From: Octopus sinensis
Lineage: Eukaryota
Length of the DNA stretch: 64,000 nucleotides
Assembly (NCBI RefSeq): GCF_006345805.1
Contig: NC_042999.1
Location: 139,562,001-139,626,000 of the forward strand
Direction of reading: 5' to 3'
The notes under the pieces: generated by a model
Seen by the model: the letters and a program-made list of their open reading frames with translations, nothing else
Databases searched by the model: none
What the model was told of the DNA's origin: nothing
Part shown: in pieces, positions 128-62,358 of the stretch
Numbering within the stretch: the first letter of the stretch is position 1
Layout of the letters: every line of letters begins with the position of its first letter
Translations under genes and position numbers: made by a program

Positions 128-508
128 CTTGAGACTTGTACGATAAGTATTTGTCCTCTGTTTCTGAGCTTCCAATCTTGCCTGTCTTTGTTCTGGTGTT
201 TCTGCCCGCCGTCTAGCAAGCTCTCTTTGCCTATGATTTCGTAATCTTAATTGCCTTTCTTCTGCAGTTTCATTTTTCCGTCTTTCCTTTACCCTCATAG
301 CATTCCTATAAGCATTTGTCTTCTGTTTCCGATCTTCTAATCTTGCTTGTCTTTGTTCTGGTGTTTCTGCCCGCCGTCTAGCAATCTGACTTTGCCTATG
401 ATTTCGTAATCTTAACTGCCTTTCTTCTGTAGTTTCATTTTTCCGTCTTTCCTTTGCCTTCATAGCACTCCTGGTGAGACGACCCAGTGCTGATACTTTG
501 GGAGGCAT
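128..508 (-). CDS. Unit A: first coding exon (STPR-like 23-aa repeats) of the repeat-BTB gene; downstream exons lie left of the window
   Basis: ORF MPPKVSALGRLT...ETTEERQLRL...ETPEQRQARL with a 55-aa (165-bp) internal duplication. Acceptor ttttctag just upstream of the ATG; donor AAG|gtagat at 128/127. Paralogous to the exons at 11895, 30306 and 55440. Confidence 0.8.
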
Positions 509-10500: not shown

Positions 10501-12479
10501 AACGGGGCTGCTAGGTAGCTGAAACAATTTTCTGGTAAGTACAGTCTTTTGGGAGTATTCTTGCTCATTTTCATGATTCTGATATTTTAATTTTTTTTGT
10601 TACAGATTTTTGAATAAGCAAGTGTCAAGGTTACAAGGAAAATAGAGAAAACTGAGTATCGTGCTGTCATAAAATACCTTTATTTGAAAGGCATGACTTC
10701 ATCAGAAATCCATGAAGATATGGTGAGAACCTTAACAGACAGTGCTCCTTGATATGCAACAGTCAAACTCTGGGTAAATAAATTCCAGTGTGGCAGGGAG
10801 AGTGTGGAAGATGATCCCACACCAGGGAGGCCTCCAACTGCAACCACCGAGGACAACATTGACCTTGCTCTTGGTATGATAATGCAAGATCATCGAATAT
10901 CATGTCGCCAGATAGCTGAGAGACTGCGCATCTCAAATGAAAGAGCAGACAACATTGTGACAAAAGAACTTGGGTTCTCAAAGGTTTCTGCTAGGTAGAT
11001 CCCTTGCCTTTTGACTCCTGAACAGAAACGCATCCGGTGCACTTTGTTCATGAGTAATCTGGAACTGTTTGAAGCCGATGCAAAGAATTTTCTTGCTCGT
11101 TTTATTACTATGGACGAAAGTTGGGTTCATCACTACCAGCCTGAAACCAAAGAACAATCAAAGCAGTGGAAGCATACATTTCTCCTACCCCAAAGAAGGC
11201 CAGGTCATTCTTTCAGCTGGCAAGGTCATGGCATCAGTTTTTTTGGATTCTCAAGGTGTCTTGCTGATCGATTACCTTGAAAAGGGTCACATCGTGACAG
11301 GGATGTATTATTCTCAGCTACTGTAATGCCTCCAGGAAGCAATCAAAGAAAAAAGGCCAGGAATGCTCACCAGAGGAATCCTTTTTCATCATGACAATGT
11401 TCCAGCCCATACCTCAGTGGTTGCCATAGCAACAATTCGTGATTGTGGATACAATTTGTTCCCCATCTGCCTTATTTGCCAGACTTAGCCCCCTCTGACT
11501 TTCATCTATTCCCAAAAATGAAAAAAGCCCTGGCTGGTCGCCATTTTGCCACTGACAATGACGTCATAGACACTGTAGGAAGTTTCTTAGAGTCTCAAAC
11601 AAAACAGTTCCTCTACGCCGGGATAATGGCACTTCAGCACCACTGGAGAAAGTGTTCAGCCATCAAAGGGGACCATGTTGAAAAATAAATCATCAGAAGT
11701 CTTGTACTATGTTTTGTTTTTTTGAGGCTCAAAACCTTTCAGACACCCCTCATAATACATTCATCCTACATATATCTTTGGTCTCTGAAATTAATTGCAA
11801 TATCAATGATCTCACCAATAAATTCCATAAGCAGATCTTTGTTATATTTCTCCTATAGGTGTGTGATTCTTAAGAATGTATACCTGATATCTACCTTGAG
11901 ACTTGTACGATAAGTATTTGTCCTCTGTTTCTGAGCTTCCAATCTTACCTGTCTTTGTCCTGCTGTTTCAGCCTGCTGGCTAACAAATTGTCTTTGCCTT
12001 TGGTTTTGTAATCTTAATTGTTTTTCTTCTGTGGTTTCCCTTTTCTGTTTTTCTCTTGCCTTCTTAGCATGTTTGGTGAGATGGCCCAGTGATGTTAGTT
12101 TGGGATGCATAACTTCATTTGGTTGATCTTCATTCATGGAATTTCTTCGCTTTTGAACTCTATTTCTCATATTCTGTAGATAAGTTTCCCTCTCCTCAGG
12201 ATTCATGTTATTTCTTCTCTCCTGATCTTTGTCTCTTTTATTCTGAAGATAAAGTTCTCTCTCATGTTGGTCCATATTATTTCTTCTTTCACGATCTCTG
12301 TTTCTTCTATTCTGAAGATAAAGTTCCCTCTCCTCTTGGTTCATATTACTCCTTATTTTTTGCATACGTTCTCGAATACGGTCACGGACTGCTTGCCTCT
12401 CTTCTGTTGATAACCGCTGCCGTCGTCTTCTCTGTCTTTCTCTTGCTGCCGCTCTTTGTTGACTTATTCTCTCTTCCAT
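7555..12479 (-). CDS. Unit B: repeat(STPR-like)-BTB/POZ protein, 4 coding exons (12479-11895, 9635-9538, 9439-9094, 8529-7555), 667 aa
   Basis: All junctions GT/AG with compatible phases (0,2,0); total 2004 nt with no internal stop. BTB signature LCDASI...VHKIVLSAVSPKLF...FAEYIYTG...AKQLDMKDLQNLC spans exons 3 and 4. Confidence 0.8.
10465..11752 (+). mobile_element. Mariner (Tc1/mariner, DD34D) transposon, full-length but pseudogenised, in an intron of unit B
   Basis: TIRs cgaggggtgtatgaaaagttttgagcct / aggctcaaaacctttcagacacccctca with TA TSD. The empty site 'ccttcttaatacattt' is seen in units C, D and E. Transposase motifs ITMDESWVHHY, HHDN, PYLPDLAPSDFHLF, broken by stops and frameshifts. 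Confidence 0.93.
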
Positions 12480-15400
12480 TTTTAAGAATAGTTGAATCTG
12501 TAAGCGATATAAGAAAAAAGCTCCCTTAGCCTGACAAACGCTGATGGTAAAAGCGTATCAATATATAAAATACTAAAGCGAATTATATGTAATCAGTTTT
12601 AACTATGCTACAATGAATTTCTTCAGGAATATAATGCAACATTAAAATAGCTTTAGCTACACTACATGCTTCCGTAAGAAATCTACTTGTGGAAGTCTAC
12701 GGTCACATCCCACTATTTTTAATTTTCATACGCTGTATGCAAATTGTGTCCAGAAGATAAAATTTGGGAATGTTATGCAAGCTTTTGTTTATTATTCAAT
12801 ATTCTCAATAATTATGAATTATTTCAGATGTATTGTATTTATGTATCCAGTGAAAAACAAACAAAAAGAACCTCAAAGCTCCCACCTCCCGGGGATGTTG
12901 AAGTGAGCAATGCACAATGTGAAGTCGGTGAACTGTCAAATTGAAAAAATAAAATTATATTGTATGAAAATGTATGATTATGTGTAGTATAACACAAAAA
13001 TTATAAAATTATTTGATAGTAAAATATGGTCACTATTTAAAGATGATTACAGTTTTTAATGTTTTCCGTGAAGTTTTCAAAGGTTGAGGTAGTTTATATA
13101 AATCTGTAGAATACGTCAGGTATATTTCATACGATAGATCGAAAGAAAGAGAGTGAAAGAGAAACAGAGAGATATGGGAAATACATGTTACAGAACTTTC
13201 CAATATTATAGATAGATAATACATTGTCCTTTTCTTTTCACAAAATCAAGGGAAACAACTCGAATTAAATCCCGACTTATTTCCTTTAGTGTGACAAACG
13301 CAGACGGTATAAGCATATTAATAATATAGAAGATGGTCTTCACTTGCACAATATTTGTCTTTTTAAAGGCAGTGTAAGGGATTAGCACTCACTTGCATTA
13401 GATTCAAAATCTGAACTCCTAAATTCGATAAATATATATATATAGCAGGAGTACCCGGCGTTGCTAGTGGTATAAATGCTTCATCATTCTAAAAACACTT
13501 ATATTCTAGTCTAACAACTAGCGCTACCAAAACGTTTTTGAAAAACATACAGAATTCCATGCCAAAATGTACCAAAATTCACAAAAATAGAGAAAAATAC
13601 CAGTTTTTCAACATCTTTGTTCTGGCGAATGGCGTGTTGTTCTTTGTTTTCTGCAGACTGCACAGCAGCATTTGCTGTAGCATACCTGGCAGCAAAAGTT
13701 TTTTCTCCACCAGAGTTCTGAACCCTAGCAATGAACTCATTTGCATACAGCCAATCAGAGCTCACCTTGTCAAGTTAACAAGCACACTCTACCAAGTAAA
13801 TTTAAGACAAACAATGGTGTTGTAAATTGACTGATCACCAAGTTATGCCTGATTTTAGAAGGAGACAAGTATTAGATAAATTTGCATCTATACCTATTAT
13901 CAGATTTTGTTAGGGGGCCCCATATGGTAAAGATGTGGGTAGAGGGTGATATGCTAGCAACCCTCTCCCCTTACTGTTTTAGAAAGTAAACAACACAAAT
14001 AACTATGCAGAGACAGCCATGGTTGAAACAAGAACAAACATTATTAAAAGAGAAAAGAAGCATCATCATTCCTTACCCAAGTGACCTTATCTTATTGCCC
14101 ATCACTTGTTATGCGCACATAAATTATTTTGATAGTTGAGCTCTGATTGGCTGTATGCAAATGAGTTCATAACTAGGGTCTGGAATTTTCGTGGGATAGA
14201 TATTTCGCTACCAGGCATGGCGAATGGCAAGATGTTCTTCATTCTCCGCAATTCTTACAGCATTCCAGGCACAGCAAATGGCACACTGTTCTTCATTCTT
14301 TGCAGTTCATGCAGCAGGGGTTGCTATAACTGTAGCATTCCTGGCATGGTGAATGGCATGCTGTTTTTTGTTCTCTGCAACTCACACAGCAGCAGTTGCT
14401 ATAGCATCTTGTATGACAAATAATATGCTGTGACTGAATCAGGTTAGCGTATACTGTAGCTATTAATGAAGCATTTCTGATCTGGCGACTGCTATACTGC
14501 TCCTTGCTTTCCATGGCTCTTGCGGTGACTGTGCAACCAGCATTTTGTGAATGTCTTCATGCAGTCTAGTGTGAGGATTCATTTGCTCTCCTTCTCTTCG
14601 ATGTCTCAACTGCGGCAGTTTTGCAACCAATATGGGCTCTTTTCTTAGGTGGCATTATCTCAGAGTTTAGAAGCTTCAATTACAAAATGCAGATGTAGCA
14701 AAAGTAAATTTAAATACACAGAGGGCAAAAAATTCAGAGGGAGAAAACGGAGAAAATCAGTTGGAAACTGCAGAAGTGTTTGGAGAAAAACCCATGTAAA
14801 ACAGTTTTTCTAGATGGAAGTTAGTGTGTGTGTGAGTGAGTGAGAGAGAGACAGGGTGAAAGAAACAGACATAGACTAAAAGAGAGGAACTATTACAGAG
14901 GGTGAGAGAAAATATCAGTAAGCAACAGAAATAGAGAATGAGATGAGACAGAGAAGAGAGAAACAAAGAGAGAGAGAAAAGGAAGAGAATTAGTTGAAAA
15001 TTGCAGAGGTTTTTAGAGAAAAACCCATGTCATCATCATCATCATTTAGTGTCCACTTTCCATGCTAGCATGGGTTAACTGGGGTCTGTGAAGCCAGAAG
15101 GCTGCATCGGCCCAGTCTGATCTAGCAGTGTTTCTACGGCTGGATGCCTTTCCTAACGCCAACCACTCCGTGAGTGTAGTGGGTGCTTTTTAGGTGCCAC
15201 CCGCACAGGTGCCAGATGGAGCTGGCAAACGGCCACGGACAGATGGTGGTTTTTACGTGCCACCGGCACGGAGGCCAGTCGGGGTGGCGCTGGCAATGGC
15301 CACGATTGGATGGTTCGCTTACTTGTCACCGGCACTGGTATCACAGCTGCAATTTCCATTGATGTTGATCGACTTCGATTTTGGTTCTGCTTTCTGATAT

Positions 15401-16285: not shown

Positions 16286-16437
16286 TCACCGACGTTTCAA
16301 AAGAACGAAGCGCGGCAGCTCGGGAAGCAGCCGCTGCCGATCGGTAAAAATGAGAAGAAAAGGAATCGGCGGGCCGAAAACAGAGACGTGAGCGCTCACG
16401 AGTTCGGCCGCCGTTCGTATACGCGCACGCCTCCTTC
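16286..16437 (-). other. Probable 5' external transcribed spacer (ETS) of rDNA, contiguous with the 18S fragment
   Basis: GC/CpG-rich non-LINE sequence immediately 5' of the 18S start; ends where the RTE frame (QGEKLE) resumes. Confidence 0.7.
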
Positions 16438-22656: not shown

Positions 22657-24560
22657 TCTATATATATAACTGAGAATGTGTGTCTGTATGTGTGTATCAC
22701 TAAAACTCGAGAACTACCCAACCGATTTCCTTTAAACTTTACACATTCCTTTCTTAGGGTCCATGGAGTGTCATGGGCCAAAAAATATTTTCAACTTCTT
22801 GCCTAATGCGAGCAAGGAGCAATCTCATAGACTGTTTCAGTATTACATGTCAAAAGTAAAACAATAGCATCTCTGTTGTAATGAAATTTAATAGTTTCAT
22901 TTTTATCACTTTGACTATGTATATATACTTGTTTGTTAAATCGCAGTATGTGTATAATGACTAATGCATACATTTTCACAATTCTCAACCGATTTTCCCC
23001 AAATCTTACAAATATATTGTGTCCCAAGGATGGTCATGCATTATAACATTTTGCCCAGAACTTCCACGAAAATGGACATAGTTTTTTGTATGTAGGATCT
23101 TCCATACTTTTTTAATCCGTTTTACAAAAGTGAAAGGGTTTTGTCTATTCATTTACTCCGACTGTCCACCTGCGCGGTGATCCTGTCAGGAAACAGAATT
23201 TGGAAGCTGTCATTTTGTTTTCATGTAAATAAATGTTTATGTTAATTTAAAAGTTTTATAAAAAAATCTTATTTAGCACAACACGTATTATGTCTCCGGT
23301 AATTTTCTTCCATGTAAAAAAATGTTATGTTAATTTTTAAAATTTTCCAAATTCGTTAAAGGTACATAGTTTTTTTGTGTGTATGGTTTTCCATACTTTT
23401 TTAAACTTATGTCGTCGTATATGGCATTCTAGAATATTTATGATTGATTAAATTGACTAGGAACACTGTACGCAATGAATATCCAATACAAAACAATTTT
23501 AATTTCAATATTTAAGCTGCATTGACCTTTTGGCAAGCTTACCATTACCTATTCTGAGTTACTTGAAAGGTGATGTTCCATTTCCTCTCTTCTATTTGTT
23601 AATACCTTTGTTTACCTACCAATGTGCTGTTTCACTTTAAGGATGCTTATTTTGCCATCCATTATGAAATTTCGATTGTTGTCCATTGTTTCAAATACGT
23701 TTTAGCATTGAAGTTCTAGCCTTGGATCTTTTCGGTTTGAACGGCAGTTTTTTCTCGCGGTGTCATGAAATTGTCACCCATAATTATGACCCTAGTATCG
23801 ATCTATTGCATTTCAATCTGTTTTAGGGTTAGGGGTGGTGGGAAGGGTATCTTTTTTCCATCAGAAATTTAAATAAACCCAATCTGTTTCTGAAACGAGG
23901 GACATATTCATACGGCACAGAATGTTTTCATCTCAATAGACGTATTTGATTGGTTGAAATTGCAGAAAAAAACAACAAATATCTTTAAAACTATAGAATT
24001 TTCTCAATAAAGCCAAGAGAAAAAGATGTTTTATAAATACATTCTACCCGTATACGAAGTTTAAAATTTTTTAGTTACCTAGAAATTATGTTAAAAACTG
24101 CCGTTCAAACCGAAAAGATCCCTAGCCTTTTTTAAACAATCACATGATTCGTCCCAAAGAATTAACCTTTAAATAAGTGTTTTGCTACCGCTAGCGAAAG
24201 TTATACATATCTTTCAGAAAGCTCCAAACCTATTTCATTTTACGCGGCATTCACTGTTACCTTATGCGCAAGCTATGTGGAAAGACATAATAAAGTGACT
24301 TTTGTTAGCTTATAATAGAATCAATAATCACTTGGTACACTAAAACCTATTTTCCTTTTCCAGATAATAGAAGCATGCCACCTAAAATGAGAGCATACAT
24401 TGGCATAAAGTCTTCTGCAGCAGTACTGACAGGCTAAGGAAACTGAGGACCAGAGGTCCTGCACGAAAAAGCTGCAACTACTCCAGAGCAGCGTGAAACT
24501 TATCGAGTGCATGCTGCTGATGCAAGGGTCACAGAAACCCCATAAAAGTGTGCTATTCGT
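22657..24560 (+). mobile_element. Helitron relic (5' end and decayed first coding exon)
   Basis: 5' end TCtatatatataactgagaatgtgtgtctgtatg. Acceptor ttttccag followed by ATG at 24375: MPPKMRAYIGIKSSAA, similar to the Helitron N-termini at 14655 and 59804. Confidence 0.55.
23724..24121. mobile_element. MITE with GGATC termini and 8-bp TSD (Merlin-like)
   Basis: TIRs ggatcttttcggtttgaacggcagtttt / aaaactgccgttcaaaccgaaaagatcc, flanked on both sides by ctagcctt. Confidence 0.85.
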
Positions 24561-24735
24561 CAGGCACGCAATGCTGCATCAACCCATTTCTTTGCAAGAA
24601 GTACATCCATGCCCCTGACCTCGTTAGTGTTCCCTGCCCAGAAAATCTTGTACCTGTGTTCTTTGCCTGTGAGGAACCTAGCAGAACCTCCTCTCCATCT
24701 TACTTCTTGGAGGCAGCACAAATCACCTCTGTTCA
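24560..24735 (-). mobile_element. RTE LINE AP-endonuclease fragment
   Basis: DLCCLQEVRWRGGSARFLTGKEHRYKIFWAGN. Confidence 0.75.
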
Positions 24736-30100: not shown

Positions 30101-30521
30101 AAAATTGTGGAGAGGCTGTAATACTAAAAGTTGACATCACAAGAAACTTCATATCATAAACCTTCTTAATACATTTATCCTACATATATCCTTGGACTCT
30201 GAAATGAATTGCAATATCAATGACCTTGCAAATAAATTCCATAAGCAGATCTTTGTTATATTTCTATTGGTGTGTGATGCTTAAGAATGTATACCTGATA
30301 TCTACCTTGAGAGTTGTACGATAAGTTCTTGCCCTCTGTTTCTGAACTTCTAATCTTGCCTGCCTTTGTTCCACTGTTTCTGCCTGCCGAAGAGCAAATT
30401 GTCTTTGTCTCTTATCTTGCAATCTTAATTGTTTTTCTTCTGTGCTTTCCCTTTTCCGTCTTTCTCTTGCCCTCTGAGCAGATTTGGTGAGACGGCCCAG
30501 TGATGATCGTTTGGTACGCAT
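27105..30521 (-). CDS. Unit C: repeat(STPR-like)-BTB/POZ protein, 4 coding exons (30521-30306, 29113-29004, 28907-28565, 28079-27105), 547 aa
   Basis: GT/AG junctions with phases 0,2,0; 1644 nt open; same BTB signature as unit B. Confidence 0.82.
29858..30090 (-). mobile_element. RTE 3'-end-derived SINE/truncated LINE in an intron of unit C
   Basis: (CAT)n + cgtttaacgtccgttttccatgctagcatgggttgg, matching the 3' end of the RTE at 15030. A ~45-bp remnant lies at the same site in unit E (~55178-55220). Confidence 0.8.
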
Positions 30522-38021: not shown

Positions 38022-40100
38022 TCAAGTAAGGCCATCTGTTTTATATAAACCTGTATTTTTGACATTGGTAACTTGTGTTGATGATAATGGTAATGTGTCC
38101 CCTTCTGCTGTAAAAAGTCCTACAGGATAGACACCTTCATTGCTACCACAAATCACATTGTTGTCAATTAACTGAGTTGTTGTTGTTCGATTTATTGGCT
38201 TAGAAGAGTCTTCTTTTATGAGTCTAGATTGAGAACACAGTTTTTCTTCACTATATGACACAGGAGATAAGTCAGAAACTGAAGAACTTTCAAATACATT
38301 AGATTTTAATTTGGGTGATGTTCCATATATCTTATTTGCTGTTGCTTTGCTATTTGTGGTATCTGAAAATGGTAAGCTAAAATCTGTAGTGGATACAGCT
38401 ATAGAATTCAAAGGAGTGTTTAGTGCCCGAGAACTATCTGAAACTGAACTAGATGTTGAAGCTCTTTTATTCATTTGACCATATTCGTCATCATCAGGTC
38501 CTACAGGCTCGATTTTTACAGTGGGAAGAATAACAGAACCAACTGGAAAGTTGCCACCGTTAGTGTCCAGAGATGCAGCCTCAATCTTTTGCTCAAAGAG
38601 TCTAACTGTATCTTTTTTAAGTTCTGCTAATTCATTTTGAGAAACCTCCTGCTTAATATCCTTAGTAGGAACAGCTGAAACATTAGATGGCATCTGCTTG
38701 GTATCATCAAACGCAGTGACTGTTGAAGCAATTTGCTGACGTGCTCCACTCAGAAGATGAGCATCACACATATTTTGTAAGTCTTTCATGTCTAATTGTT
38801 TTGCAATGACTTTTAGCTGTTGTAAAATATTAAGATCAAGATCTAATAGTCCAGTATATATGTATTCAGCAAAAGCCATTAAAGTTTCTGTACTAACTAC
38901 TTCAGGAAATTTCACTTCATAAAACTGAGAAGAGATGTCTGTACTAATTACTGAGAACAGTTTTGGAGACACAGCAGACAAGACTATTTTATGGACCTGA
39001 AATATAGTAAATGATAACAGTATGTTTATAGCTTGCCAACAATACATTAATAGACACGTAAGAGTCATGTTCATAAAATAGAAAAATATAAGTTTGTTTT
39101 TCCAACTTTTACAAAAGCAATTGACTACCAAGTCACTGGAAGTCACTGGAAGTTGATTTTAAACTTCATTCATTTCAAAGAGTTATTTCATTAATACTTT
39201 AATTAAATCAACTCCATTTTCTTTTTCTGTAAAATATTCTATTGTATTTTAATGACTGAATCATAAAATTTTCTGATAATAATAAAACTCAATTGAATTC
39301 TATCTATAACTTCTGATAAGGGCATAAAAGATTTTATGACTAATTTATTATAACAGATTTATCTAAGAATTGCACCAGCAAGAAAATACAAATCAACTAG
39401 ACCTACCTTTAAGAAATATAGAGGGGAGTAGAATAAAGAATATTGTGATATTAAGCACATTAGAAATTAAGCATAATTGTTTAGACTTACAAGCAAAATT
39501 CTTTGCTTATCATGATGATGACATTAGAAATAGTCTATAGATGTGAAAAAGTTTACGACTGTATACTTACCATCACAGTAGATGAGCCATTGCTAATACT
39601 AGCATCACATAATTTCCTATTTCTCCACATAGATGCTAGGTTAGACATGACACAATGTTCGTGACTAGTAACTAGCAATTTTTGTTTCGGTAAATCTGTT
39701 TTTCTAATTATTGATTTAGATACAGTTGTTTGATTTGGATATTTCACCAGCTTTGATTTGGATGGAGTTATTTGAAATGGTGAAGTCAACACCTGAGCTG
39801 GTTTTGTAATATTTTGCGATGCTTGTGCTAAACTTGAATCTTGCTGGACTGGCATTTTAGTTGGATGTACACATTTTGAAATCTTTGGAGTTGATAAAGC
39901 ACTGTTCATTTGCCTAAAATGAAAATTTGTAATTAATTCAGAATATATAAAAGAAAAATAGTAACTCAATAGCATTGTCAAAATACCATTTTAGTCATCA
40001 CATACCATCTGTCATGTGATTGTTGATTTCTTAACATTCGATTCTCGTGTTGCTCCCCAAGGTGCTGTATTTCTTTCTTTTTTTCCTGTGTCATTTTCAT
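38022..40100 (-). CDS. Unit D: BTB/POZ paralog lacking the repeat exon (exons 40100-40006, 39913-39571, 38996-38022); possibly an N-truncated ~470-aa protein or a pseudogene
   Basis: The three remaining exons are open and in phase (1413 nt), and the linker exon begins ATG AAA ATG. Unit homology breaks at ~40950 and resumes at ~44082, skipping the repeat exon. Confidence 0.65.
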
Positions 40101-40949
40101 CTGAGTGTTGAGGAAGTGAGGCATGATCAAAGAAAGAAAGAAAAAGATAAAAGAATAAAAATTTCAGTTCAATGGAAATAATTTGGACTGTGATGAATGA
40201 ATAATTTAGGTTAATGAAAATGTCAATGATAACTGAAAATTCTTGTTTGTAAGACTAACAAATATTTGAATTGCCTCATTGAAACTTTCACTAAGAAAAA
40301 ATGAAATCTGTCAGTCACATAAGTATATGGCAAATCCACAAAAGCATTCAAAATCACCTGAACAAAGAATCTCTACTGAATCCTAAAACTGAAATGAGAA
40401 TGGAGCTGGATGTTATACTTATCCTATTCTGAAATCTGACATGATGGTAGCATGTTGTAATTTGACTTCAACATCAAATATATAGTAACTGCTGCCACAA
40501 TTCACACAAGACTTTCTCTGGTAGATTTTCTGCAGAAAATTTTTCAACGTTGTAATTCCTGATTGAGTTTACAATTGATTTAACAGTAGCTTCATTAAAT
40601 TTGTATTTTTATCATATACATTAATTCCAAAATTATACTCAATTTATAATGGATAGTGATCCCTCAACACTGTATAGTGTACATGATATTGTATTACAGG
40701 TGCATATTTTTGATAATACCAGATAATGAAGTACTGAGCACACTAAGTTACTTGGCTTGTCCACTGATGTTTATCAATTGCACAGCTCCTAACCCTGACA
40801 TGGAGATTCAAGGAAGCATACAAAGTATGACTGAGCCTTAATTCATGATTTTGTTGAGCTCATTCTTAATGAAAATTGTGGAGAGGCTGTAATACTAAAA
40901 GTTGACATCACAAGAAACTTCATATCATGAACCTTCTTAATACATTTAT

Positions 40950-43900
40950 CTATATCTATAAAACAGTCCTTGGATGAAAATTGTATGCACATTTTGCTTT
41001 GACGGTTAATGGCGGCCAAACCGAGGCTTGGATCAAGTTGAAACTTGGCAAGGATACTAAATGCATGGTGAGGATGAGACCTGTGATGGTTAAAATTCGC
41101 AAGCTATAAAGATGTGGTTGCTATGGCAAAAAGAGTGATTTTTTTATCGATTCAAGGGGGCTCAGAGCCCCTCTAGGTTTGTGCGATTGGCTTTAAATGC
41201 CCAGTGGCATGCACTGCAGGCTGTTGTGCTTAATAAACATACATTTTGTCACAAAATTCCGGCTACTAGGAAACAATTTTTCATTGTGAAAAAATGATTG
41301 CTTTTTGCCCTCATTTTCTTTTTAATTTCTTACTACTTACATTGTTGGCATTTTCAGAAAAAAAAATTACATCTACATGTAGCCCTTCAGAAGGGCTATC
41401 ATGCACATTTTTCTCCTTTCTTGCAATATCCAATGGCAATTTGAAGGCTGAATGTGCTGTTTTACAGCCATGCAACAAAGTCACTGCAATTCCGCTTGAT
41501 GCAGCTGCCAAAGCGATTCTCCTGTCTTTTCGCAGTTTTGCAAGTAGAAGGTTGATGACAAATGTTTTGCCTGTGCCACCCGGAGCATCCAAAAAGAAAA
41601 GTGTACCTTCATTTGAAATGACACTGGAAAAATTCTGTTGTACGCGAATTGCTGTTCAATCAAATGTTTGGATTCATTTCGAGCCAACATTTTGGTTAAT
41701 TCTTTAAGGTTGTAGTACAATTCCGTGATGTATTCTGAATCTAAAATGCCATCTCTGTAGACAGGGTTTGGAATACCGAAATGAGATACATCGTCGAATC
41801 CAGCAGCTCAGAGACGCCTATCGATATAAAGGAGCGCCTTGTTGTAGATTTCATTGTTGTATTCTCTTGCGTGTAGTCTTCACAAGATGTCCTCCGACAT
41901 GCTGTTTTTGTGCGTTTCCCACAGCTGTAGGGGTTCGCTTACATTGCAGAATCGCAGCATACTGCAGAACAATCACCGCATCTCCGTCATGCTCCATTGC
42001 ATCGTGAAGCTGTGTGTATTCAGCAGCTCAGAGCTCCTTTGGTGAGTGCAGATGTAGAACAGACGTTTGGATTCAATTTTGGCATACATGTCAACAAAGA
42101 ACTGATTAGTGACATCTTTGAACCGTAGCAGCTTGTTGAAATCGTTATCCCGAACCATCATTCGGTAGGCATAAAATGCCTTGCAAGAAACTTTTTTGCA
42201 CAGGAACTCAAGTTGTTGGGTGTATCTGTTGTATGTGGAAGTGGTAGCCGTCGTCACCACGCAGAAACAAGAGTGAATACTGAAGACAGTTGTAGGAGCG
42301 GTGGGTTTTGGAGACAAATGACAATCGGTTACTTCGGTGTTGGAGAACAATGTCGCGGGTGCTGTGTTCTTTGTCAACCATGATGGCTGCAATTTCGCTG
42401 GTCGTCGAAGCGTTGAACCTTCGAGGATGTTCGCCGGTGGTGTTTTGTCAGCTCGGATGACCAGTTTCATTTCAGGTCTGGAGTCCAAAAATTCAGTAGC
42501 AACTTTCAGATCGTGGACATATGGATGGGTTTCATGAAGCATTGTTTGAAGTTCTTCAATGACGCTGCCATTAATGGACGCATTTCTGCTGCATCTAAGG
42601 GATAGTTCTTCTTCATTTCTGCCCATGAAGACTTGCATAAATCTCGGCTCCTCTCCTTGCTGTGGTCGAAGTTTCCAATCAAGTGGTAACACTGGCCTTG
42701 AATTTTTTAATTGTAAAGTTTTTCTCTGGGCCTGGTTTGATCAGTTCGAGAAGTGCCAGCGACATCTGTATTGTCGATGTTTGTTCTAGCATTTTGTCCA
42801 TCCCTAATACCGAAAGACGTCATCGCGAAGCAGGAATTGTACTTCTACAAATTCTTGCGAAATAATTTCCCGTGGTCTGAGTTACCGGTGAGAAGATCAC
42901 AGAGTAATTGAGGAGGCTCAGCCAGTGGCTCAAGATTAACTTTGGTCCCGGAACAGCAAAGGCCCGGAGTCTCACATTTCCACTTTTTGGCTCCACAGAA
43001 GTTGCACGCTTTGTCCATCTTTCCGATAGACACATCAGCTCGACTGGCGTAGTCATAGGCAGGGTCGTAGTTGAAGGCAACCGAGGAAACGAACTGTTGA
43101 CCAGGAGAATTATAATTCATTTTAATAAAAGCATCAATTTAAAAAAAAAATAAAGTAGTAACAAATGAAAATTTAGCACAAAAAATGTGGAGGCTTCTAA
43201 ATAAATGTTCAAATGTAAAAGATACAAATATAGACGGCGAATTAAAATAAAGCACAGTTCAGATATAATAAACGTGCATTAAAAATTGAAATTGTTGTAG
43301 GTTAAGTAATACAGGAACCGGAAAAAGATTGTTCAAATAATCGACCCATGAAATTTGTAGTGTGTTGATTGGGTAAATCGTTTTAGAAAATATTTAATGA
43401 AATATTTATTTAAAAAATTTTAATTCAAAAAACGTACATGATAAGCACAAAGCAAATGCTTGATGGCGGGTTCTCTTTTTATTTGCTCCATCGGCGAGTT
43501 TTGGGCGGTTGAGGATTCCAAGGAGTGAGCCTTCATGGAGAAAAGGTGGAAAAAAGCAATGTGCTTAAAAAATTATTAAAGATAGGGGTGTATCTAGTCA
43601 GTTTTTCTCAGTAAATTTCAAAAGAACGAAGAGCTCATTAAAATTTAATGTATAAAATATGAATACATTTTGTTTTTGTAATTGGCAGTTAAAGCATAGA
43701 AAAAATGTGCTTTAAGTATAGCTTAGAAAAATGGAGAAAAAATAGTGAATGATGGATTATTTTAATGATTTTAATGTTGTCAGTAAAGTAAAATGTAAAA
43801 AAATAAATTTTAAAAAAAGGAATCTGATCACCAGAACGTGAGCGAATAGCCCATATCAGAAGTATTTTTCTTTTGGGTAAAAAGGCTATTTATTAATCAA

Positions 43901-44080
43901 AAAATTACCCGAGCATGTGCCTTCCTCTTTCGCAATTTCCTCATTCTAGCTCGGTGGTTTGATAAGTTGGAGCGCTTACGCATAGGCATATTGAAAAGCA
44001 AATCTGAAAAATAAAATAAATATTTTGAAACCAAAAGATGATTTGGTTTACAATGAGAAAAGGAATAAAATAGTTGAGAA
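40950..44080 (-). mobile_element. Internally deleted Helitron (Rep-helicase fragments) occupying the position of unit D's repeat exon
   Basis: Fragments AFNYDP...CNFCGAKKWKCETPGLCCSG (43090-42845), Rep region YAYRMMVRDNDFN...QFFVDMYAKIES (42692-41973), and PIF1 Walker A LDAPGGTGKTF...AASSGIA...TAHSAFKLP (41592-41420). Confidence 0.88.
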
Positions 44081-52032: not shown

Positions 52033-55000
52033 TCAAGTAAAACCATCTGTTTTATATAAACCTGTATTTTTGACATTGGTAACTTGTGTTGATGATAATG
52101 GTAATCTGTCCCCTTCTGCTGTAAAAAGTCCTACAGGATAGACACTTTCACTGCTAACACAAGTCACATTGTTGTCAATTGACTGAGTTGCTACAGTTCG
52201 AGTTAGCGGATTAGAAGAGTCTTCTCTTAAGAGTCTAGATTGAGAACACAGTTTTTCTTCACTATATGACACAGGAGATAAGTCAGAAACTGGAGAACTT
52301 TCAAATACATTAGATTTTAATTTGGGTGATGTTCCATATATCTTATTTATTGTTGCTTTGCTATTTGTGGCATCTGAAAATGGTAAGCTAAAATCTGTAG
52401 TGGACACAGCTATAGAATTCAAGGTAGTGTTCAGAGTCTGAGAACTATCTGAAACTGAACTAGATGTTGAAGCTCTTTTATTCATTTGACCATATTCGTC
52501 GTCATCAGGCCCTACAGGCTCGATTTTTACAGTGGGAAGAATAACAGAACCAAATGGAGAGTTGCTATCCTTAGTGTCCGGAGATGCAGCCTCAATCTTT
52601 TGCTCAAAGAATCTAACTGTATCTTCTTTAAGTTCTGCTAATTCATTTTGAGAAACCTCCCGCTTAATATCCTCAGTAGGAACAGCTGAAACATCAGATG
52701 GCATCTGCCTGCTATCATCAAACGCAGTGACTGTTGAAGCAATTTGCTGACGTGCTCCACTCAGAAGATGAGCATCACACATATTTTGTAAGTCTTTCAT
52801 GTCTAATTGTTTTGCAATGACTTTTAGCTGTTGTAAAATATTAAGATCAAGATCTAATAGTCCAGTATATATGTATTCAACAAAAGCCATTAAAGTTTCT
52901 GTGCTTACTTCAGGAAATTTCACTTCATAAAACTGAGAAGAGATGTATGTACTAATTACTGAGAACAGTTTTGGAGATACAGCAGACAAAACTATTTTAT
53001 GGACCTGAAATAAAGTAAATGATAACAGTATGTTTATAGCTTGCCAACAATAAAATGATACACACTTAAGAAACATGATTATAAAGTGGAAAAATTTACT
53101 ACAAAACCTATTGACTACCAAAAGTGTCAAGCCACTGGAAGTTAATTTAAACTTCACTTATCTCAAAGAGTTATTTCATTAATGCTTTAATTAAATCAAC
53201 TCCATTTACTTTTTCTGTAAAATATTCTATTCCGTATTAGTAAGCAAATGTTTCAGAAAAAGTTATTGTCAATGATGGAATCGTAAAACTAAAGGCTACA
53301 CCTACTTTTGAGAAATACAGAGAGACTAGCTATTTTGACCCTTAATTCGCTCAGGTTTTGGTGGTGGTGTTGTTTTGTGTGTGTTGTCTCCTTTTCCCTC
53401 TCTTCTTTTGTTCGTCTTCTTTGCCAGGTTCTTTTTATTGTCCTCTTCTTTTTCTTATTTAAAAATTTTTTTCTTTGTCTTTATCTTCTTGAAAACTAAA
53501 TTTTCCCCATATTCTTCACAATGGCAACAAAATAGTTGCCGCGAGCGACTTGCAACCCTCCTCACACCATTGCCCGCTCCATTTCCCCCCCCCCCAGTGT
53601 AAATTTTGGTGCCAATCCGACCCCATCTACCGCCACGTAAATCATTCCCATCCCAAAATGAGACAAATAACCAAGAAATCAAACAACTTTTTTGCATTTC
53701 AGCTTTTTAGATATTGAAGTAGAAGAAAGAATATCTTGATATTAAGCACATTAGACATTATGCATAAATTTTTGGACTTACAAGCAAAAGTCTTTGCTTA
53801 TCATGATGATGACATTAGAAACAGTCTATAGATGTGAAAAAGTTTACAACTGTATACTTACCATCACAGTAGATGAGCCATTGCTAATACTAGCATCACA
53901 TAATTTTCTACTTCTCCACATAGATGCTAGGTTAGACATCACATAACGGTGATGACTAGTAACTAGCAATTTTTGTTTCGGTAAATCTGTTTTTCTAATT
54001 ATTGATTTAGATACAGTTGTTTGATTTGGATCTTTCACCAGCTTTGATTTGGATGGAGTTATTTGAAATGGTGAAGTCAACACCTGAGCTGGCTTTGTAA
54101 TATTTTGCGATGCTTGTGCTAAACTTGAATCTTGCTGGACTGGCATTTTAGTTGGATGTACACATTTTGAAGTCTTTGGAGATGATAAAGCACTGTCCAT
54201 TTGCCTAAAATGAAAATTTGCAATTAATTCAGAAGAAATGTATAAGAGAAAAATAGCAACTCAACAGCATTGTCAAAATACCATTTTAGTCATCACATAC
54301 CATCTGTCATGTGATTGTTGATTTCTTAACATTTGATTCTGGTGTTGCTTCTTCAAGTGTTGCTCCTCAAGGTGCTGTATTTTGTTCTTTTTTTCCTGTA
54401 TCATTTTTATCTGAGTGTTGAGGAAGTGAGGCATGATCAAAGAAAGAAATAAAAAGATAAAAGACTAATGAATTCATTTAAATGGAAATAATTGAGACTG
54501 TGATGAATGGATAAGTTATTTTAATGAAAATGTCAATGATAACTGAAAATTCTTGTTTATAAGGCTGACAAATAATGCTTAATTCCCATATTGAAACTTC
54601 CACTAAGAAAAAATGAAATCTGTTAGCCACATAAGTATATGGTAAATCCACAAAAGCATTCAAAATCAATCAGAACAGAGAATCTCTACAGAATTCCAAA
54701 ACTGAAATGAGAATGGAGCTGCATGTTATACTTATTCTATTCTGAAATCTGACATGGTGGTAGATTGTTGTAATTTGACTTCAACATCAAATATATAGTA
54801 ACTGCTGCCACAATTCACACAAGACTTTCTCTGGTAGATTTTCTGCAGAAAATTTTTCAACATTATAATTCCTGATTGAGTTTACAATTGATTTAACAGT
54901 AGCTTCATTAAATTTGTATTTTTATCATATACATTGATTCCAAAGTTATATTCAGTTTATAATGGATAGTGATTCCTCAACACTGTATAGTGTACATGAT

Positions 55001-55655
55001 ACTGTATTGCAGGTGTGTATTTCTTTGGTGCTGATAATACCAGATAATGAAGTACTGAGCACACTAAGTTACTTGACCTGCCTGCTGATGTTTATCGATT
55101 GCACAGCTCCTAAACCTGATATGGAGATTCAATGAAGCATACAAAGTATGACTGAGCCTTAATTCATGATTTTGTTCAGGTGCAAGGCGAGGCTGGCAAT
55201 GGCCATGATCGGTCGGTGCCAATTCTTAATGAAAATTGTGGAGAGGCTGTAATACTAAAAGTTGACATCACAAGAAACTTCATATCATAAACCTTCTTAA
55301 TACATTTATCCTACATATATCCTTGGTCGCTGAAATTAATTGCAATATTAATGACCTCGCATATAAATTCCATAAGCAGATCTTTGTTATATTTCTCCTA
55401 TTGGTGTGTGATGCTTAAGAATGTATGCCTGATATCTACCTTGAGAGTTGCACGATAAGCTCTTGTCCTCTGTTTCTTAGCTTCTAATCTTGCCTGCCTT
55501 TGTTCCACTGTTTCTGTCTGCCGACGAACCAATTGTCTTTGCCTATGATTTTGTAATCTTAATTGCCTTTCTTCTGTGGTTTCCCTTTGACGTTTTTCTC
55601 TTGCCCTCCTAGCTTCTTTGGTGAGACTGCTCAGTGATGATCGTTTGGGGCGCAT
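52033..55655 (-). CDS. Unit E: repeat(STPR-like)-BTB/POZ protein, 4 coding exons (55655-55440, 54410-54301, 54204-53862, 53004-52033), 546 aa
   Basis: GT/AG junctions with phases 0,2,0; 1641 nt open; BTB signature conserved. Confidence 0.8.
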
Positions 55656-56884
55656 AATTTCATAACACTAGAAAAAAAATTTCCTTTTTTAAGAGAACAT
55701 TGACACACATTTTCTAGATATCTAAAAAAAATTAGTACGATATCTTTTAATCAGAATGTTACAAACAACAAATTATACCAATAATTCTTTCCTAATTATG
55801 TCTACAGAGAACTAGTATTTATATGGAGATTGCATCTGAAATATTAGTGTATGGTCTTCACTTTATACCTTATTGCTCTTTAGAAAGGCAGTGTAAGGGA
55901 TTAGGTCCCCTTGAACACTATTATAAATTCGCCACATTACTTGCGATTTCACATCATATATGCTGACTCACATTGGATTCAAAATCTGAACTGAATTTCT
56001 GTATATATATATGATGAAGCTTCTTTGCTACAATCAACACGAGAAAATAATTAAAATATGATCTTAAACCCTGCTGAGATTGACCCATACCAATTTGTGA
56101 TTTTGTATCAGACTGGACTACCCATGACCCGTTGGGTCACCTGGACAGTCGGAGTTTTCTAGCAACGGATTTGTGTTTCATGGCTTTTTTTCTTCTCCAG
56201 TCTATTTTGCATGCTTTCAACGAATGTGACATATCGTAATCATGCATAAATGATTCCTTTATTCAGAAAAGGAAAGACTTCGCTGCAATTTCTTGCATGC
56301 CCTGGTATCACATAACAAGTATTTCGAGTCCTGTATCGCAAAAAGCTGTCAGTTATAGTACACACATACACACAAGAACAAGCACGCAGTTGACAAGACT
56401 TCCTCATGGAAACTAACGAATATTTTGTTTTCATTCAGTAATACAAAAGAAAAATTAAGATACAATATACTATTTCTGAGATTGTAAAATCCCACATGCG
56501 GTTAATAGAGAATACATAAAAGTATAACTATTCTTAAAGAAAACCACTGATCTGAACTTCAAACACCAATGATACAGTCATGGGTAACAGCAATGGAGAA
56601 GCCTTCCAGGTAGCAAAGGATTCCAATTCTACAGTGCTTAGATCTCATCTTTCTTTGGCAACTTCAAGGCAGCAGCACTGCCACCACCACTGTTATTGTT
56701 AAATCACCCAACTCCTAGTAGTACAGCGGTAATAGAAGATGCAGTTATCTTTCAAAATCATGATGATACATATATCAAGGAAATATAAACCTTCTGCCTA
56801 AACAATACATCCTTAACGCGAAAACCCTAACACTAACTACAAAAATTTTTGGAAACTTTTTTCAGAATCATAATCAGTGTGTGT

Positions 56885-57196
56885 GTGTGGCACGTAAAAA
56901 GCACCCACTACACTCACGGAGTGGTTGGCGTTAGAAAGAGCATCCAGCTGTAGAAACTGCCAGATCCGACTGGAGCTAGGTGCAGCCTTCTGGCTTCCCA
57001 GATCCGCGGTCGAACCGTCCAACCCATGCTAGCATGGAGAACGGACGCTAAACGATGACGATATATGTATATATATATACATATATATATATATATACAT
57101 ATGTATATATATATATATAATATATATATATATATAATACATATATATATATATATATATATAATACATATATATATATATAATATATATACATAC

Positions 57197-57235
<39 letters not shown>

Positions 57236-57449
57236 TATGCATATATCATCATCATCATCATCATCATCGTTTAACGTCCGCTTTCCATGCTAGCATGGGT
57301 TGGACGGTTCAACTGGGGTCTGGCAAGCCCGAAGGCTGCACCAGGCCAGTCAGATCTGGCAGTGTTTCTACAGCACCAGATATATGTATGTATATATATA
57401 TATGCATATATATGTATGTATATATATGCATATATATGTATATATATAC

Positions 57450-57497
<48 letters not shown>

Positions 57498-57725
57498 CAC
57501 GTACTGTGCTGGTGGCACGCACTGTGCCGGTGGCATGTAAAAAGCACCCACTACACTCACGGAGTGGTTGGCATTAGGAAGGGCATCCGGCCGTAGAAAC
57601 ATTGCCAGATCAGACTGTGTCTGGTCTGGTGCAGCCTTCTGGCTTCCCAGACCCCAGTTGAACCGTCCAACCCATGCTAGTATGGAAAGCGGACGCTAAA
57701 CGATGATGATGATGATGATGATGAT
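56885..57725. repeat. Cluster of three RTE-3'-derived SINE copies in alternating orientation, separated by (TA)n and (CAT)n microsatellites
   Basis: Copies at ~56890-57060 (+), 57246-57372 (-) and 57525-57725 (+); long TA-rich runs between them. Confidence 0.85.
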
Positions 57726-58224
57726 ATATATGTATATATATCAATAATACAGTAATTGTTTCTTATCAGGAACAAAATGTTTAATAGGACTGCTATAGAA
57801 GTGCTCAATTAAATGAGACAAATATATTAAACTGTGGTTGCAGAACAAACAAATACAAGGTCATCCACGTAACATTTCATATCTCGAACATTTAATCACA
57901 TAATGCTTTTTCTTTCACATAGAATATACATGTATAACATCACGGAAGATGAAACACAACTCATCAGTACAAGCATATAAGAAAATACAAGAAAAATGCG
58001 TGAATATAGTTCATCTCGGTTAAAAGTTAACGCTTAATATTTTAGCAATTAAGAAATATATATTTTTTAAAAAACATTACAACACCTAGAATAATAAAAA
58101 TATAAGAAATATATAGATATATAAAAATACATATATAAGTATAGGAAGCATATAAATAAGTAATATATAATATATAAGGTCAGATAAAAGTTCATTGTTT
58201 AGAAAAATTTTTTCCGATTCAAAA

Positions 58225-59804
58225 TTACTTTTCAGATAAGGCAAACCTATAGTTAAAAGCCAGTGTCCAAGCAAAAATGAAGAAAACATATTTACATTCC
58301 CTATGGCCATAGGGAATGTAAATACGGTGGAGGTGACTACAGCAGTTGTTTCGGGTCATAAATCTGTATGAGTAGAAGTCCATGCAGGATATTGGCTTGT
58401 TGAGATGTTCATTAAGATTTTGAGGATGTTGCTGTAGTAGACCGATGTGGTAGCCATCCTCACCGTTAATAAACAGAAGTGGGTATTGGAGTAAATCATA
58501 TGATCTGTGTGTTTCACTAATTCGTTGGAGGGTGGTGTCACGTCGCCTGAGGACAATGTCTCTGGGATTGTGCTGTTCACCGTGAAGGAATACAGCTATT
58601 TCATTGCATGTGGGTGCATTGTAATGGCCTGCATGTTCCCTAGATGGTCTTTTCTGGGCATCAATGATAACATTAAAATTTGATGAATCTTCAGTTTCCA
58701 AGGTATACTTGAAGATGTGTACGTAGCTGTTTTTCTGGTGCAAAAGGTCTTGCAGTTGCATTATCAAGTGAAAGTTAGTACCTGTGGAAATGGAATTTCG
58801 TTGGGTGGCTTGCTCATGTAAATTACCTACAAAGTACAGTTGAAGGAATTGAGGATCTTGATTTTCAGCAGGTTTGAGTGATCCTATCCTATGGTAAACC
58901 TGTCCCTGAACTTTGAAAGTTGGCATAAACCCGCCTTCTTGAACAACATTAGCGCCGAAAGATGTCATTTGGAATGCACAATTGTACTTCCGGATGTTAT
59001 TCAGGAAATGTAGTTGTGCCAGTGTAGAGTGACTTTAAGAGCTGTGGTGGATCCTGCAGTGGATCCATTAGTGCAACACATTGCAGGAGTTTCTCTTGAC
59101 CACTTCTTAGCATTGCAGAAAGAGCAAGTGATGGACATATTGCCAATGTTCATATCTAGGTGGCAATCATAATGAAGGTTAGGGTTGTATTGGAAAGCCT
59201 TTAATAACCATCGTTAGCTGCATGGCGTTGAAAATCCTCGTCTATGAGCTCTTTGTTGAGTTGAAGTCTGCAGCATAGTACATCTCTGTTGTAAGGTGTA
59301 GGAAGCTTGCGCAGCAGCCATGTTGGCAGCATTCCTGAGCAGACGTGTAGTGCGTTCGTTTTTCTTCTCTGCAGCTTGTGCAGCAGCAGTTGAGGAAGCA
59401 TCAGCAGTTCGTCGAACTTTACGCTGGAGTTCTGTTTCTGCAGCTTGTGCAGCAGCGGTTGAGGCAGCATCAGCAGTTCGTCGAACTTTACACTGGAGTT
59501 CATTTTCTGCAGCTAGCGCAGCAGCAGTTCATCGAACTTTACGCTGGAGTTCATTTTCTGCAGCTAGTGCAGCAGCAGTTCGTCGAACTTTACGCTGGAG
59601 TTCATTTTCTGCAGCTCGCACAGCAGCAGTTCGTCGAAGTTTACGCTGGTGATCTTTTTGAAGTGCTCTTGAATTGGCAGTACGTCGAGCATTTTGTGAT
59701 CGTCTAATGTAAGTTTCGGCTGACGATTCATTGGCCCTCCTTGCTGATGTTCTTGCAGCTTTCGCAGTTTTGCATCCAATTGAAGAAGTCTTCCTTCGGG
59801 GCAT
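58225..59804 (-). mobile_element. Helitron Rep-helicase N-terminal portion (pseudogenised) with tandem peptide repeats
   Basis: MPRRKTSSIGCKT..., 51-bp and 69-bp coding repeats, AFQYNP...CSFCNAKKWSRETPAMCC, FQMTSFGA...FKVQGQVYHRIGSL, HRSYDLLQYPLLF, FYSYRFM. Confidence 0.92.
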
Positions 59805-60239
59805 GATCTAAAAGAAGCATGATGAAATGCAGTGAGATACACTGTGAAGTATGAAATATTAATTGAAGGGTTAGTATGTAACTGTAGAGCAGTTGAAAAC
59901 TTGCAACTGCTGCGGTAATAATGAAGTGGTAGTAAGTAGAACGGTAAATGTATAAAATTAGATGATATTAGTGTTATGAAATGAAAATGAGAATGGAAAC
60001 AGTTGTGAAAAGGAAGGCGAGAAAAATGGTAAGAGCAAAGGAGAAATTGTTTATGAATTGCGTTGAGAATGTTGTCGTTAGTGTGAACATGAAGTGAGGG
60101 TGTTGTTTGTCAATGTATGGCTGCTTTGTCGTATAGATTGGATAGGAAAAGGGTTAATGAAAGAGCAAGTGGATGAGTTGCTTAGGTTTGTTTAGTGGTG
60201 CTAGTGGGGCAGAAACTGCCGTTGATGCTGCATGTAAGT

Positions 60240-61850
60240 GTAGGAATGGTTAAAGGTAAGTTGGTAGGTCTGCAGGTCCCCAGAAAGGAAGAAGAAAAAA
60301 CAGTCACGTGAAATTTAAATGCGTGCATTGGCACACATTTCAGTAATGAAAACTGAAAGAAAGTTTGAGTGTTTTTGGTCGTTGTGAAGTCTCCTGTTCC
60401 GCTAATCTTAATGTAAGAAATTGAAAAGAATTGAAAATGTAAGAAATTGACTGAAGAAATGTAAAAGATTGCTCGGCGTCCACATTACGGAAGAAGTATG
60501 GAAATATTTAGAAATAAGTGAAAATGTAAAAATGAGGAGTAGGGACAGGGAATTGAAAATGATTGCATAATTGGAATGTCCGTGATGGGAAACATATGAA
60601 TCCACTGGAAAAGAAAGAAAGAAGGGTTTGAGGGTTGATATGCAGGTGTGCTTATAAACATTAACCAATGTGGCTGTTATTTGTAGCATGTCATGCTACC
60701 AGTGGACAAGTATTTGCGAGAAGCCATTACGTGGTAGCAGCACGTGCAAGAAATAGCAGTGAAATATTTCATATTTTCTTAGTGAAATGAGTGTATGAAT
60801 GATTGTAGGTAAGTTAGTAGGTCTGCATGCCTGCATTATTGAAGAAGTGCAGAAGTATCGATAAACTTTATTGCGTGCGCCAGCATACGTTTCAGTAAGG
60901 AGAAGGGGGAAAAGTGGGAGTGTTTTCGCTCAGGATCAAGTACCGTGTTACCCTGTTCTTAATGAAAGAAATTCAAAAGAAATTAAAATGTAAGAAATTG
61001 ATTGAAGAAATGTAAAAGATTGCTCGGCGCCCGCATTATGGAAAAAGTATGGAATTATTTGGAAAGATGTGAAAATGTATAAAGGAGGAGTATGAACAGG
61101 GAATTGAAAATGATTGCATAATTGGAATGTCCGTGATGGGAAACATGAGTCCGCTGGAAAAGAAAGAAAGAGAAACTGTGGGAGTTTATATGCAGGTGTA
61201 CTTATAAACATTAACCAATGTGGCTGTTATTTGTAGCACGTCGTGCTACCAGTGAACAGGTATTTGCGAGAAGCCGTTACATGGTAGAATCACGTGCTAG
61301 AAATAGCAGTGAAATGTTTCATATTTCGTTATTGAAATGTGTGTAGGAATGATTGTAGGTAAGTTAGTGGGTCTGCAGGCCCGCATAATTAAAGAAGGGC
61401 AAAAATATAGGGAACGCGTTTCAATAAGGAGAACGGGAAAGACTGGGAGTGTTTTCGCTTGGTAGGAAGTACCGTGTTCCCCTATTTTTAATGATGAAGT
61501 TGAAAAGAAATGAAACGGTAATAAATTGACTGCAGAAATGTAAAAGATTGCTGGGCACCCGCATTAGGGAAGAAGTATGGAATTATTTTGAAAGAAATGA
61601 ACATGTAAAAATGAGGAGTGAATTGAAAATGATTGCATAATTGGAATGCCCTTAACGGAAAATATGAATCCGCTGCAAAAGAAAGAAAAGTGTTTGGAAT
61701 TGATATGCAGGTGTACTTGTAAACATTAACGGATTTGGTTGGTATTTGTAACACGTCATGGTACCAGCGAACAGCTATTTGTGTAAATCCGTTATGTGGT
61801 AGCAGCATGTGATAGAAATAGCAGTGAAATGTTTTATATTGATGCAATTT
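60240..61850. repeat. Three diverged tandem copies of a ~550-bp unit in the Helitron upstream region
   Basis: 'aggtaagtt(g/a)gt(a/g)ggtctgca' recurs at ~60254, 60807 and 61357, with shared internal motifs. Confidence 0.8.
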
Positions 61851-62007: not shown

Positions 62008-62358
62008 TGGCTGGAAATGAATTCTGTCATATTTATAAGAAAGCAGAGAGCTAGAAGGATGAAGGTATCAGTGGTGTGGGGTTGTTTGAATTGTCCGGAC
62101 ACTATGAAGGTTAGAGGTGAAGTGGATGACAATATAATTCACTTGATAAGGTAGCATCTGGTAAATATCTGTTACCATGGCTGGAAACGAATTTTGTCGT
62201 ATTTATAAGAAAGCAGACAGTTAGAAGGATGAAGGTATTAGTGGTGGTATAGTGGTGTGGGGTCGTTTGAATTGTCCATACGCTATGAAGGTTAGAGGTG
62301 AAGTGGATGACAATATACTTCACTTGATAAGGTAGCATGTGGTAAATATCTGTTACCA
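62008..62358. repeat. Two tandem copies of a ~170-180-bp unit
   Basis: 'tggctggaaa...ggtaaatatctgttaccat' repeated. Confidence 0.8.

Follow-up and report, generated by a model that had tools for sequence, protein, structure and literature searches.

The minus strand of a 64,000-nucleotide stretch of the Octopus sinensis genome (contig NC_042999.1, positions 139,562,001 to 139,626,000, hereafter the window) carries a tandem array of BTB genes, with units E, D, C, B and A inside the window and unit F and further paralogs outside it (coordinates above 64000 are window numbering extended into the neighbouring DNA). Our subject is the first coding exon of unit A, a short exon of STPR repeats. The explanation we hold to be probable is that this spliced exon was captured from an extinct Helitron family onto a duplicated BTB core, and that its product is a dimeric binder of AT-rich DNA. 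Front exons of transposon type are numerous in this BTB family, and the repeat exon belongs among them, a setting overlooked by the original prediction for this DNA, which had proposed capture of a Helitron exon by a BTB gene. In two sister genes, unit D and paralog G, Helitron sequence is joined in frame to a BTB gene in the genomic DNA itself, each time with a different Helitron family.

The unit A protein (P0001) is identical to an Octopus sinensis database protein. Its first coding exon (55655-55440) codes for a 24-aa leader followed by two 23-aa STPR repeats, and was joined to the BTB exons in contigs of all four transcript-like runs, drawn from three studies. All three joints in these contigs (55440 to 54410, 54300 to 54203 and 53860 to 53002) were GT-AG; the runs are guessed, not recorded, to be RNA, and the GT-AG joints argue for spliced transcripts. 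Unit A is an in-frame spliced join of an STPR exon and host BTB coding sequence. By Pfam the protein contains a BTB domain only, complete over positions 4-106 of 110, with no Rep or helicase domain, so it is not an autonomous Helitron. The BTB domain resembles dimeric BTBs (CP190, PLZF, BCL6) as well as Kelch-type BTBs. No joint was listed in the run contigs at the acceptor (55667) upstream of the ATG, and two contigs (X1, X6) pass straight across it at low depth and may be unspliced RNA or DNA. No joint from the Helitron at 59804 to the BTB exons was present among the run contigs, an absence that is not proof.

The repeats have a period of 23 residues with Glu1, Thr/Ser2, Arg9 and Leu10, the tandem pattern of STPR proteins, and two glutamates spaced 23 apart (E25 and E48) are invariant. 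Units A and C hold two repeats, units D and E four or more. Against Pfam PF21107 (STPRs), unit E scored 29.6 bits (cut-off 27), unit A 18.5 bits, below the cut-off, and unit D had no match. The best PDB match of the repeat-exon alignment was FMBP-1 (E 0.006), and the best score in an ESM Atlas search was 0.79, which we treat as a lead only.

The junctions of unit D and paralog G can be read base by base. The unit D graft adds 123 codons of different 23-aa repeats (open reading frame, ORF, from 12479), and the Helitron join replaces the acceptor directly before the old ATG. Dispersed copies reaching into RepHel share 77-85% identity with its DNA. The graft is open, with all four dispersed copies tested being broken, and 113 of its 123 aa are identical in O. 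bimaculoides (P0029). The first 1.8 kb of paralog G (119381, ~55 kb from the window) come from another Helitron family, with 85-87% identity to the best dispersed copies, and are joined in frame to a copy of paralog H at a point within its exon 3. The G fusion is carried by an O. vulgaris model (102/105 aa). The open frame of G is unremarkable, as two of eight dispersed copies are open too. G and H of this genome group together, with O. bimaculoides H outside (100/97), which makes G the probably younger fusion: the D graft was in place before the split from O. bimaculoides, and G probably arose after it. No donor was established for two further front exons: exon I (97536) had no dispersed relative in the genome, and exon H (132425) had only upstream repeat DNA without Helitron domains.

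The transposable-element part was traced to a family at the DNA level for D and G; for the exon of units A to E only its leader and tree position point to Helitrons, with no DNA donor found. Three Helitron families of Octopus, identified independently of the exon, start with the pattern M..[IL]GRxT-x12-E. We scored the 22 residues before the first repeat against these three families, with shuffles and 83 internal STPR windows as controls. The leader likeness to Helitrons exceeded these controls for units C (34.7) and E (32.3), with shuffle z of 4.4 and 4.7 and none of the 83 internal windows as high (maximum 22). It was weaker for A (20) and D (15), with z of 2.6-2.8 and one and two of the 83 windows, respectively, scoring as high. 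We also built a tree of 33 rows and 68 columns, for which a host exon had served as the query that collected the outside rows. The six host exons grouped there with a Macrostomum Helitron_like_N protein as their sister (UFBoot 98), and most other branches were weak. Among 1.84 billion representatives, a profile search found 82 matches, 78 of which were scored outside the octopus family, 29 with the leader. BTB relatives without the repeat exon, which the original prediction had proposed to look for, were found as master gene isoforms and paralogs.

A number of results weigh against a Helitron origin of the exon or against its being under selection. The tree is short, most of its branches are weak and its outside rows go back to the host exon itself. 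Downstream Helitron sequence was present in only 10 of the 29 leader-bearing profile matches compared to nine of the 49 leaderless ones (many are fragments, and one of the 10 is a snake host fusion). That snake protein, P0128, had been counted as a Helitron in the tree as well, although it is a host gene model. A genome search with 55300-56500 met exon DNA only in its own paralogs and no donor copy among the best candidates, and a protein search of the genome, with 150 of 294 candidates scored, gave five matches, all inside the window. Whole exons of A, C and E scored 91-108 against other STPR exons of the family and 67-98 against Helitron consensus N-termini. No long RepHel relative was found among 108 candidates (proteins of 957-2730 aa) in what was a weak search. 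Finally, paralog dN/dS was 0.71-1.12, so that no constraint is evident between paralogs. With these points counted, derivation of the exon from a now-extinct Helitron family still appears probable from its leader and tree position, and the proposed capture onto a BTB gene is likely for unit A and seen at the base level in its sisters D and G.

The window also contains three Helitrons that the original prediction had called donor-like. The quoted peptide starts are present at 508, 55655, 59804, 14655 and 24375, and the elements at 59804, 14655 and 24375 are all Helitron relics. The 59804 element matches a Pfam-confirmed Helitron protein (E 3e-65), has 89 matches in the genome and contains the 69-bp repeats (2.3 copies at 59368-59529) as well as 51-bp repeats. 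Only similarity at the protein level identifies the 14655 relic (E 3e-8 to 59804, 1e-11 to the G family), and eight of nine copies of the 24375 family extend into the Helitron zinc/YNxAF region. Their donor-like character held at the family level and failed at the DNA level, where the exon has no similarity to any window Helitron. As exon donors they were rejected (no DNA match; protein z 0.1-7, leader-driven), and they belong to younger dispersed families unrelated to the exon in DNA. A splice acceptor close to the ATG had been put forward as a shared trait. A pyrimidine-rich AG does precede the ATG, by 12 nt in units A, C and E and by 3 nt in 59804, but 14655 fails. The 12-nt test is passed by 3.9% of all ATGs, and four of 28 other array ORFs have an acceptor within 25 nt. 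As a sign of Helitron origin the acceptor is weak, being absent from the F38 and FG consensus, with no joint seen.

The BTB core from which these genes descend belongs to a much larger system. A BTB-domain search gave 35 proteins, and a master BTB gene has its core at 180736-178684, ~115 kb beyond the window. At the orthologous O. bimaculoides locus, isoform models numbered up to X36 have a common BTB core and differing N-termini; these isoforms come from RefSeq gene models and not from reads. Among 20 isoforms examined, the unique parts of two were too short to map; the other 18 fell on 17 separate minus-strand positions over ~180 kb (182448-364133), 17 isoforms with 85-100% identity and one with 77%. 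With Pfam run on 53 of 108 candidate ORFs plus one added, 20 of the 46 ORFs upstream of the master core matched DNA-binding families: 11 THAP (nine over the cut-off), three CENP-B/Tc5, two Brinker and one each of FLYWCH, Psq, DUF4817 and HTH_29. We take THAP, CENP-B and other front-exon families to be transposase-derived. Such an origin is stated in part in the accessible text of PMC10027918. The gene models of this locus show a common BTB core with many alternative DNA-binding exons, and an STPR-like ORF (197340) lies within the array. A cuttlefish model has one THAP exon unchanged (66/66 aa) and another nearly so (53/59). Five further variable exons checked had phase-0 donors, as in the unit A exon. 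A second BTB cluster 2.3 Mb away (contig C3, 141.93-142.00 Mb) has four related cores with alternating STPR and CENP-B/Tc5 exons upstream, and these ORFs appear as alternative N-termini in gene models. STPR-like BTB proteins occur in cuttlefish too (P0030, P0059/P0060).

Units A-F form one clade with O. bimaculoides A and D inside it (support 100/100). Intron 1 of units A and B still contains, in decayed form, the variable exon that lies nearest to the core in the master gene, and the unit F repeat exon is truncated. Identity to the O. bimaculoides orthologs is 90-92% in a protein comparison. Between A, C and D the repeat exons are 83-87% identical and the adjacent introns 92-95%, a pattern that would fit diverged specificities or gene conversion of the flanks. 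Under the history we propose, a duplication would have copied the master core together with its nearest variable exon, the 5' part of a Helitron would have provided a new ATG exon, and the old variable exon would then have decayed in intron 1. The unit would have multiplied in tandem before O. bimaculoides and this species split, with a further Helitron graft (D) and exon loss (B, F) as later events. STPR repeats bind AT-rich DNA by shape, at 4 bp per repeat, according to the available text of PMC4856987. Dimerisation through BTB may pair the short two-repeat modules and let them grip DNA; such a pair would present at least four repeats to AT-rich DNA. The paralogs may be chromatin or transcription regulators with diverged specificities.

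Table 1. Positions of the array exons, grafts and Helitron relics in the window.
Feature	Position	Strand	Basis
Unit A repeat exon, first coding exon, phase-0 GT donor	55440..55655	-	sequence; Pfam STPRs E 0.0028 (below cut-off); joint to 54410
Candidate splice acceptor, 12 nt 5' of unit A ATG	55668..55669	-	sequence; no joint seen
Decayed relic of master gene's nearest variable exon, inside unit A intron 1	54658..54921	-	E 7e-12; DNA 70% identical to 182327-182052
Unit A exon 2, linker	54301..54410	-	splice joints
Unit A exon 3, linker and BTB N-half	53862..54204	-	sequence comparison, splice joints
Unit A exon 4, BTB C-half, Ser/Thr-rich tail and stop	52033..53004	-	Pfam, splice joints
Unit B, BTB exons kept, repeat exon missing	38025..40959	-	Helitron relic ~41314-44003 occupies expected exon place
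Unit C repeat exon (BTB exons 28906-27108)	30306..30521	-	genome and sequence comparison
Unit D repeat exon, old part (BTB exons 9438-7558)	11895..12110	-	genome and sequence comparison
Second-family Helitron fragment, in frame just before old ATG of unit D	12111..13335	-	dispersed copies, genomic junction
Unit E repeat exon, internal 165-bp duplication	128..508	-	passes Pfam STPRs cut-off
5' relic of dispersed Helitron family (leader, 51- and 69-bp repeats, RepHel start); not donor	58228..59804	-	repeats, genome matches, protein match
Decayed Helitron N-terminal relic	14446..14655	-	protein similarity
Decayed Helitron N-terminal relic, dispersed family	24200..24585	+	dispersed copies

An alternative source of the repeat exon lies within the BTB family. 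The exon could be a diverged copy of an older cassette STPR exon, such as that at 197340, that reached its place through local rearrangement and not through a new capture from a Helitron. STPR exons are indeed present in the cassette and in the 141.9 Mb cluster, whole-exon scores against cassette STPR exons equal those against Helitrons, and the cuttlefish has its own STPR-like BTB proteins. The leader of these other STPR exons differs, however, being three residues longer and scoring 37-45 against Helitron family F64, where A-E score 10-19, and in the tree they stand apart from A-E. Their leader is also itself Helitron-like: these host-type exons match the leader of a further dispersed Octopus family, six of whose 20 copies run into Helitron sequence. 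We consider a local copy improbable, and fresh capture from a Helitron remains our reading of the exon.

Two further alternatives concern what the fusions do. The original prediction proposed that they recognise and silence Helitron DNA, by analogy to KRABINER-type fusions, and the repeated capture from several Helitron families, together with an exon diverging faster than its intron, could reflect an arms race. STPR repeats, however, read AT-rich shape with broad specificity, as described in the available text of PMC4856987, and Pfam found no repressor module besides BTB in the unit A protein. The same core also carries THAP and other exons, one of them the same in octopus and cuttlefish, in keeping with stable host targets. 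Silencing is slightly less probable still than the local copy, and a role of the products as general DNA-binding regulators is more likely than one as Helitron silencers. No better placed than silencing is the view of the repeat exons as almost neutral passengers, which arise when DNA rich in Helitrons is exonised onto redundant, drifting BTB duplicates. A paralog dN/dS near 1, loss of the exon in B, its truncation in F and the ordinary open frame of G all agree with drift, but four units (A, C, D and E) and O. bimaculoides keep an open repeat-exon frame, 65 of 72 aa of the unit A exon are kept between the species compared to 196 of 241 in the tail, and the D graft is open where its dispersed copies are broken.

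Several other features were observed around the array. A 255-bp piece of a BTB-gene 3' region (56479-56734, 94-96% identical to 51554-51809) lies upstream of unit A exon 1. A conserved element ending in a GT donor, probably a 5' exon, recurs upstream of the units (~1635, 19240, 21401, 47512), with no copy 5' of unit A within the window. The models P0065, P0066 and P0068 of O. vulgaris begin unit B at a basic ORF (43989), and RefSeq model P0069 joins the unit C leader to the second half of unit E, probably as an alignment artefact between paralogs. Inside the variable-exon array of the master gene are two long minus-strand ORFs with matches to DUF3504 (L157:710-1891, L158:3768-4928), a Crypton-derived domain. 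Upstream of the 59804 Helitron are long direct repeats with strong GC skew (60237-61840 and 62008-62359; ~550 bp and 180 bp, 76-87% alike). The repeat region of its family makes up a long tandem array on contig C1 (~207.075-207.085 Mb), and contig C29 has a similar array of G-family repeats. A short minus-strand stretch (16055-16280), inserted in an RTE-like long interspersed nuclear element relic (15537-17039), resembles the 5' end of 18S rRNA. Outside cephalopods, colubrid snake ARL14EP isoform X2 models (P0128/P0160) join a Helitron-type leader, STPR repeats and the Helitron post-repeat linker to the ARF7EP_C domain, and the fusion is nearly identical in Ahaetulla and Pantherophis. This is likely a parallel Helitron capture; ARL14EP is a SETDB1 partner.

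In Drosophila mod(mdg4) and lola, alternative DNA-binding exons, dozens of them, are combined with a single BTB core. The octopus system has the reverse polarity: its variable exons are N-terminal, and the domains come from several transposon classes. Since all mapped variable exons lie on one strand upstream of the core, trans-splicing is not indicated. Host-transposase fusions (SETMAR, KRABINER and Caenorhabditis F-box A2 with a mariner helix-turn-helix) likewise place a transposon DNA-binding domain, often N-terminally, on a multicopy host domain in a restricted lineage (available text of PMC12062965). N-terminal capture of transposable-element domains is documented there, in text that mentions neither STPR nor octopus. 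The octopus donor differs in being a Helitron STPR module and not a DDE transposase domain, and many domains are carried on one BTB core. FMBP-1 and ZNF821 have the same 23-aa repeats with Glu1, Thr/Ser2 and Arg9 (available text of PMC4856987), whereas the octopus exon has only two repeats (four or more in D and E), a Helitron-type leader and a BTB fusion. In the available text of PMC11417382, STPRs are a stable, HLE1-specific extra domain of Helitrons and were captured by them; in the octopus it is the host gene that received the module from a Helitron. According to the part of PMC10027918 available, BTB accompanies most THAP and CENPB factors of Octopus, as here, but BTB is called the transposon part there, the words isoform, fusion and Helitron are absent from its main text, and a cassette with a shared core is not described. 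An expansion of terminal inverted repeat elements and Helitrons is dated to ~25 million years in the available text of PMC13282606. No description of the locus or of a Helitron STPR-BTB fusion was found in the literature covered, which leaves subscription papers and supplements outside. The repeat-exon genes are a variant of host-transposase fusion within an apparently undescribed cassette locus.

We lean towards a standing exon trap in coleoids, in which one BTB core has, through the whole of coleoid history, acquired alternative first exons from many transposon classes and is still gaining Helitron STPR modules (at least four separate captures), with combinatorial BTB dimers convergent with mod(mdg4) and lola but reversed. 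Units D and G are datable, base-level cases of Helitron protein sequence entering host genes, and suggest a possible route for the spread of STPR domains among animal proteins. A single locus, through its isoforms, accounts for part of the reported expansion of Octopus THAP and CENP-B factors. As a conserved coleoid gene whose many DNA-binding exons can be exchanged, it is directly a candidate for cephalopod regulatory novelty.

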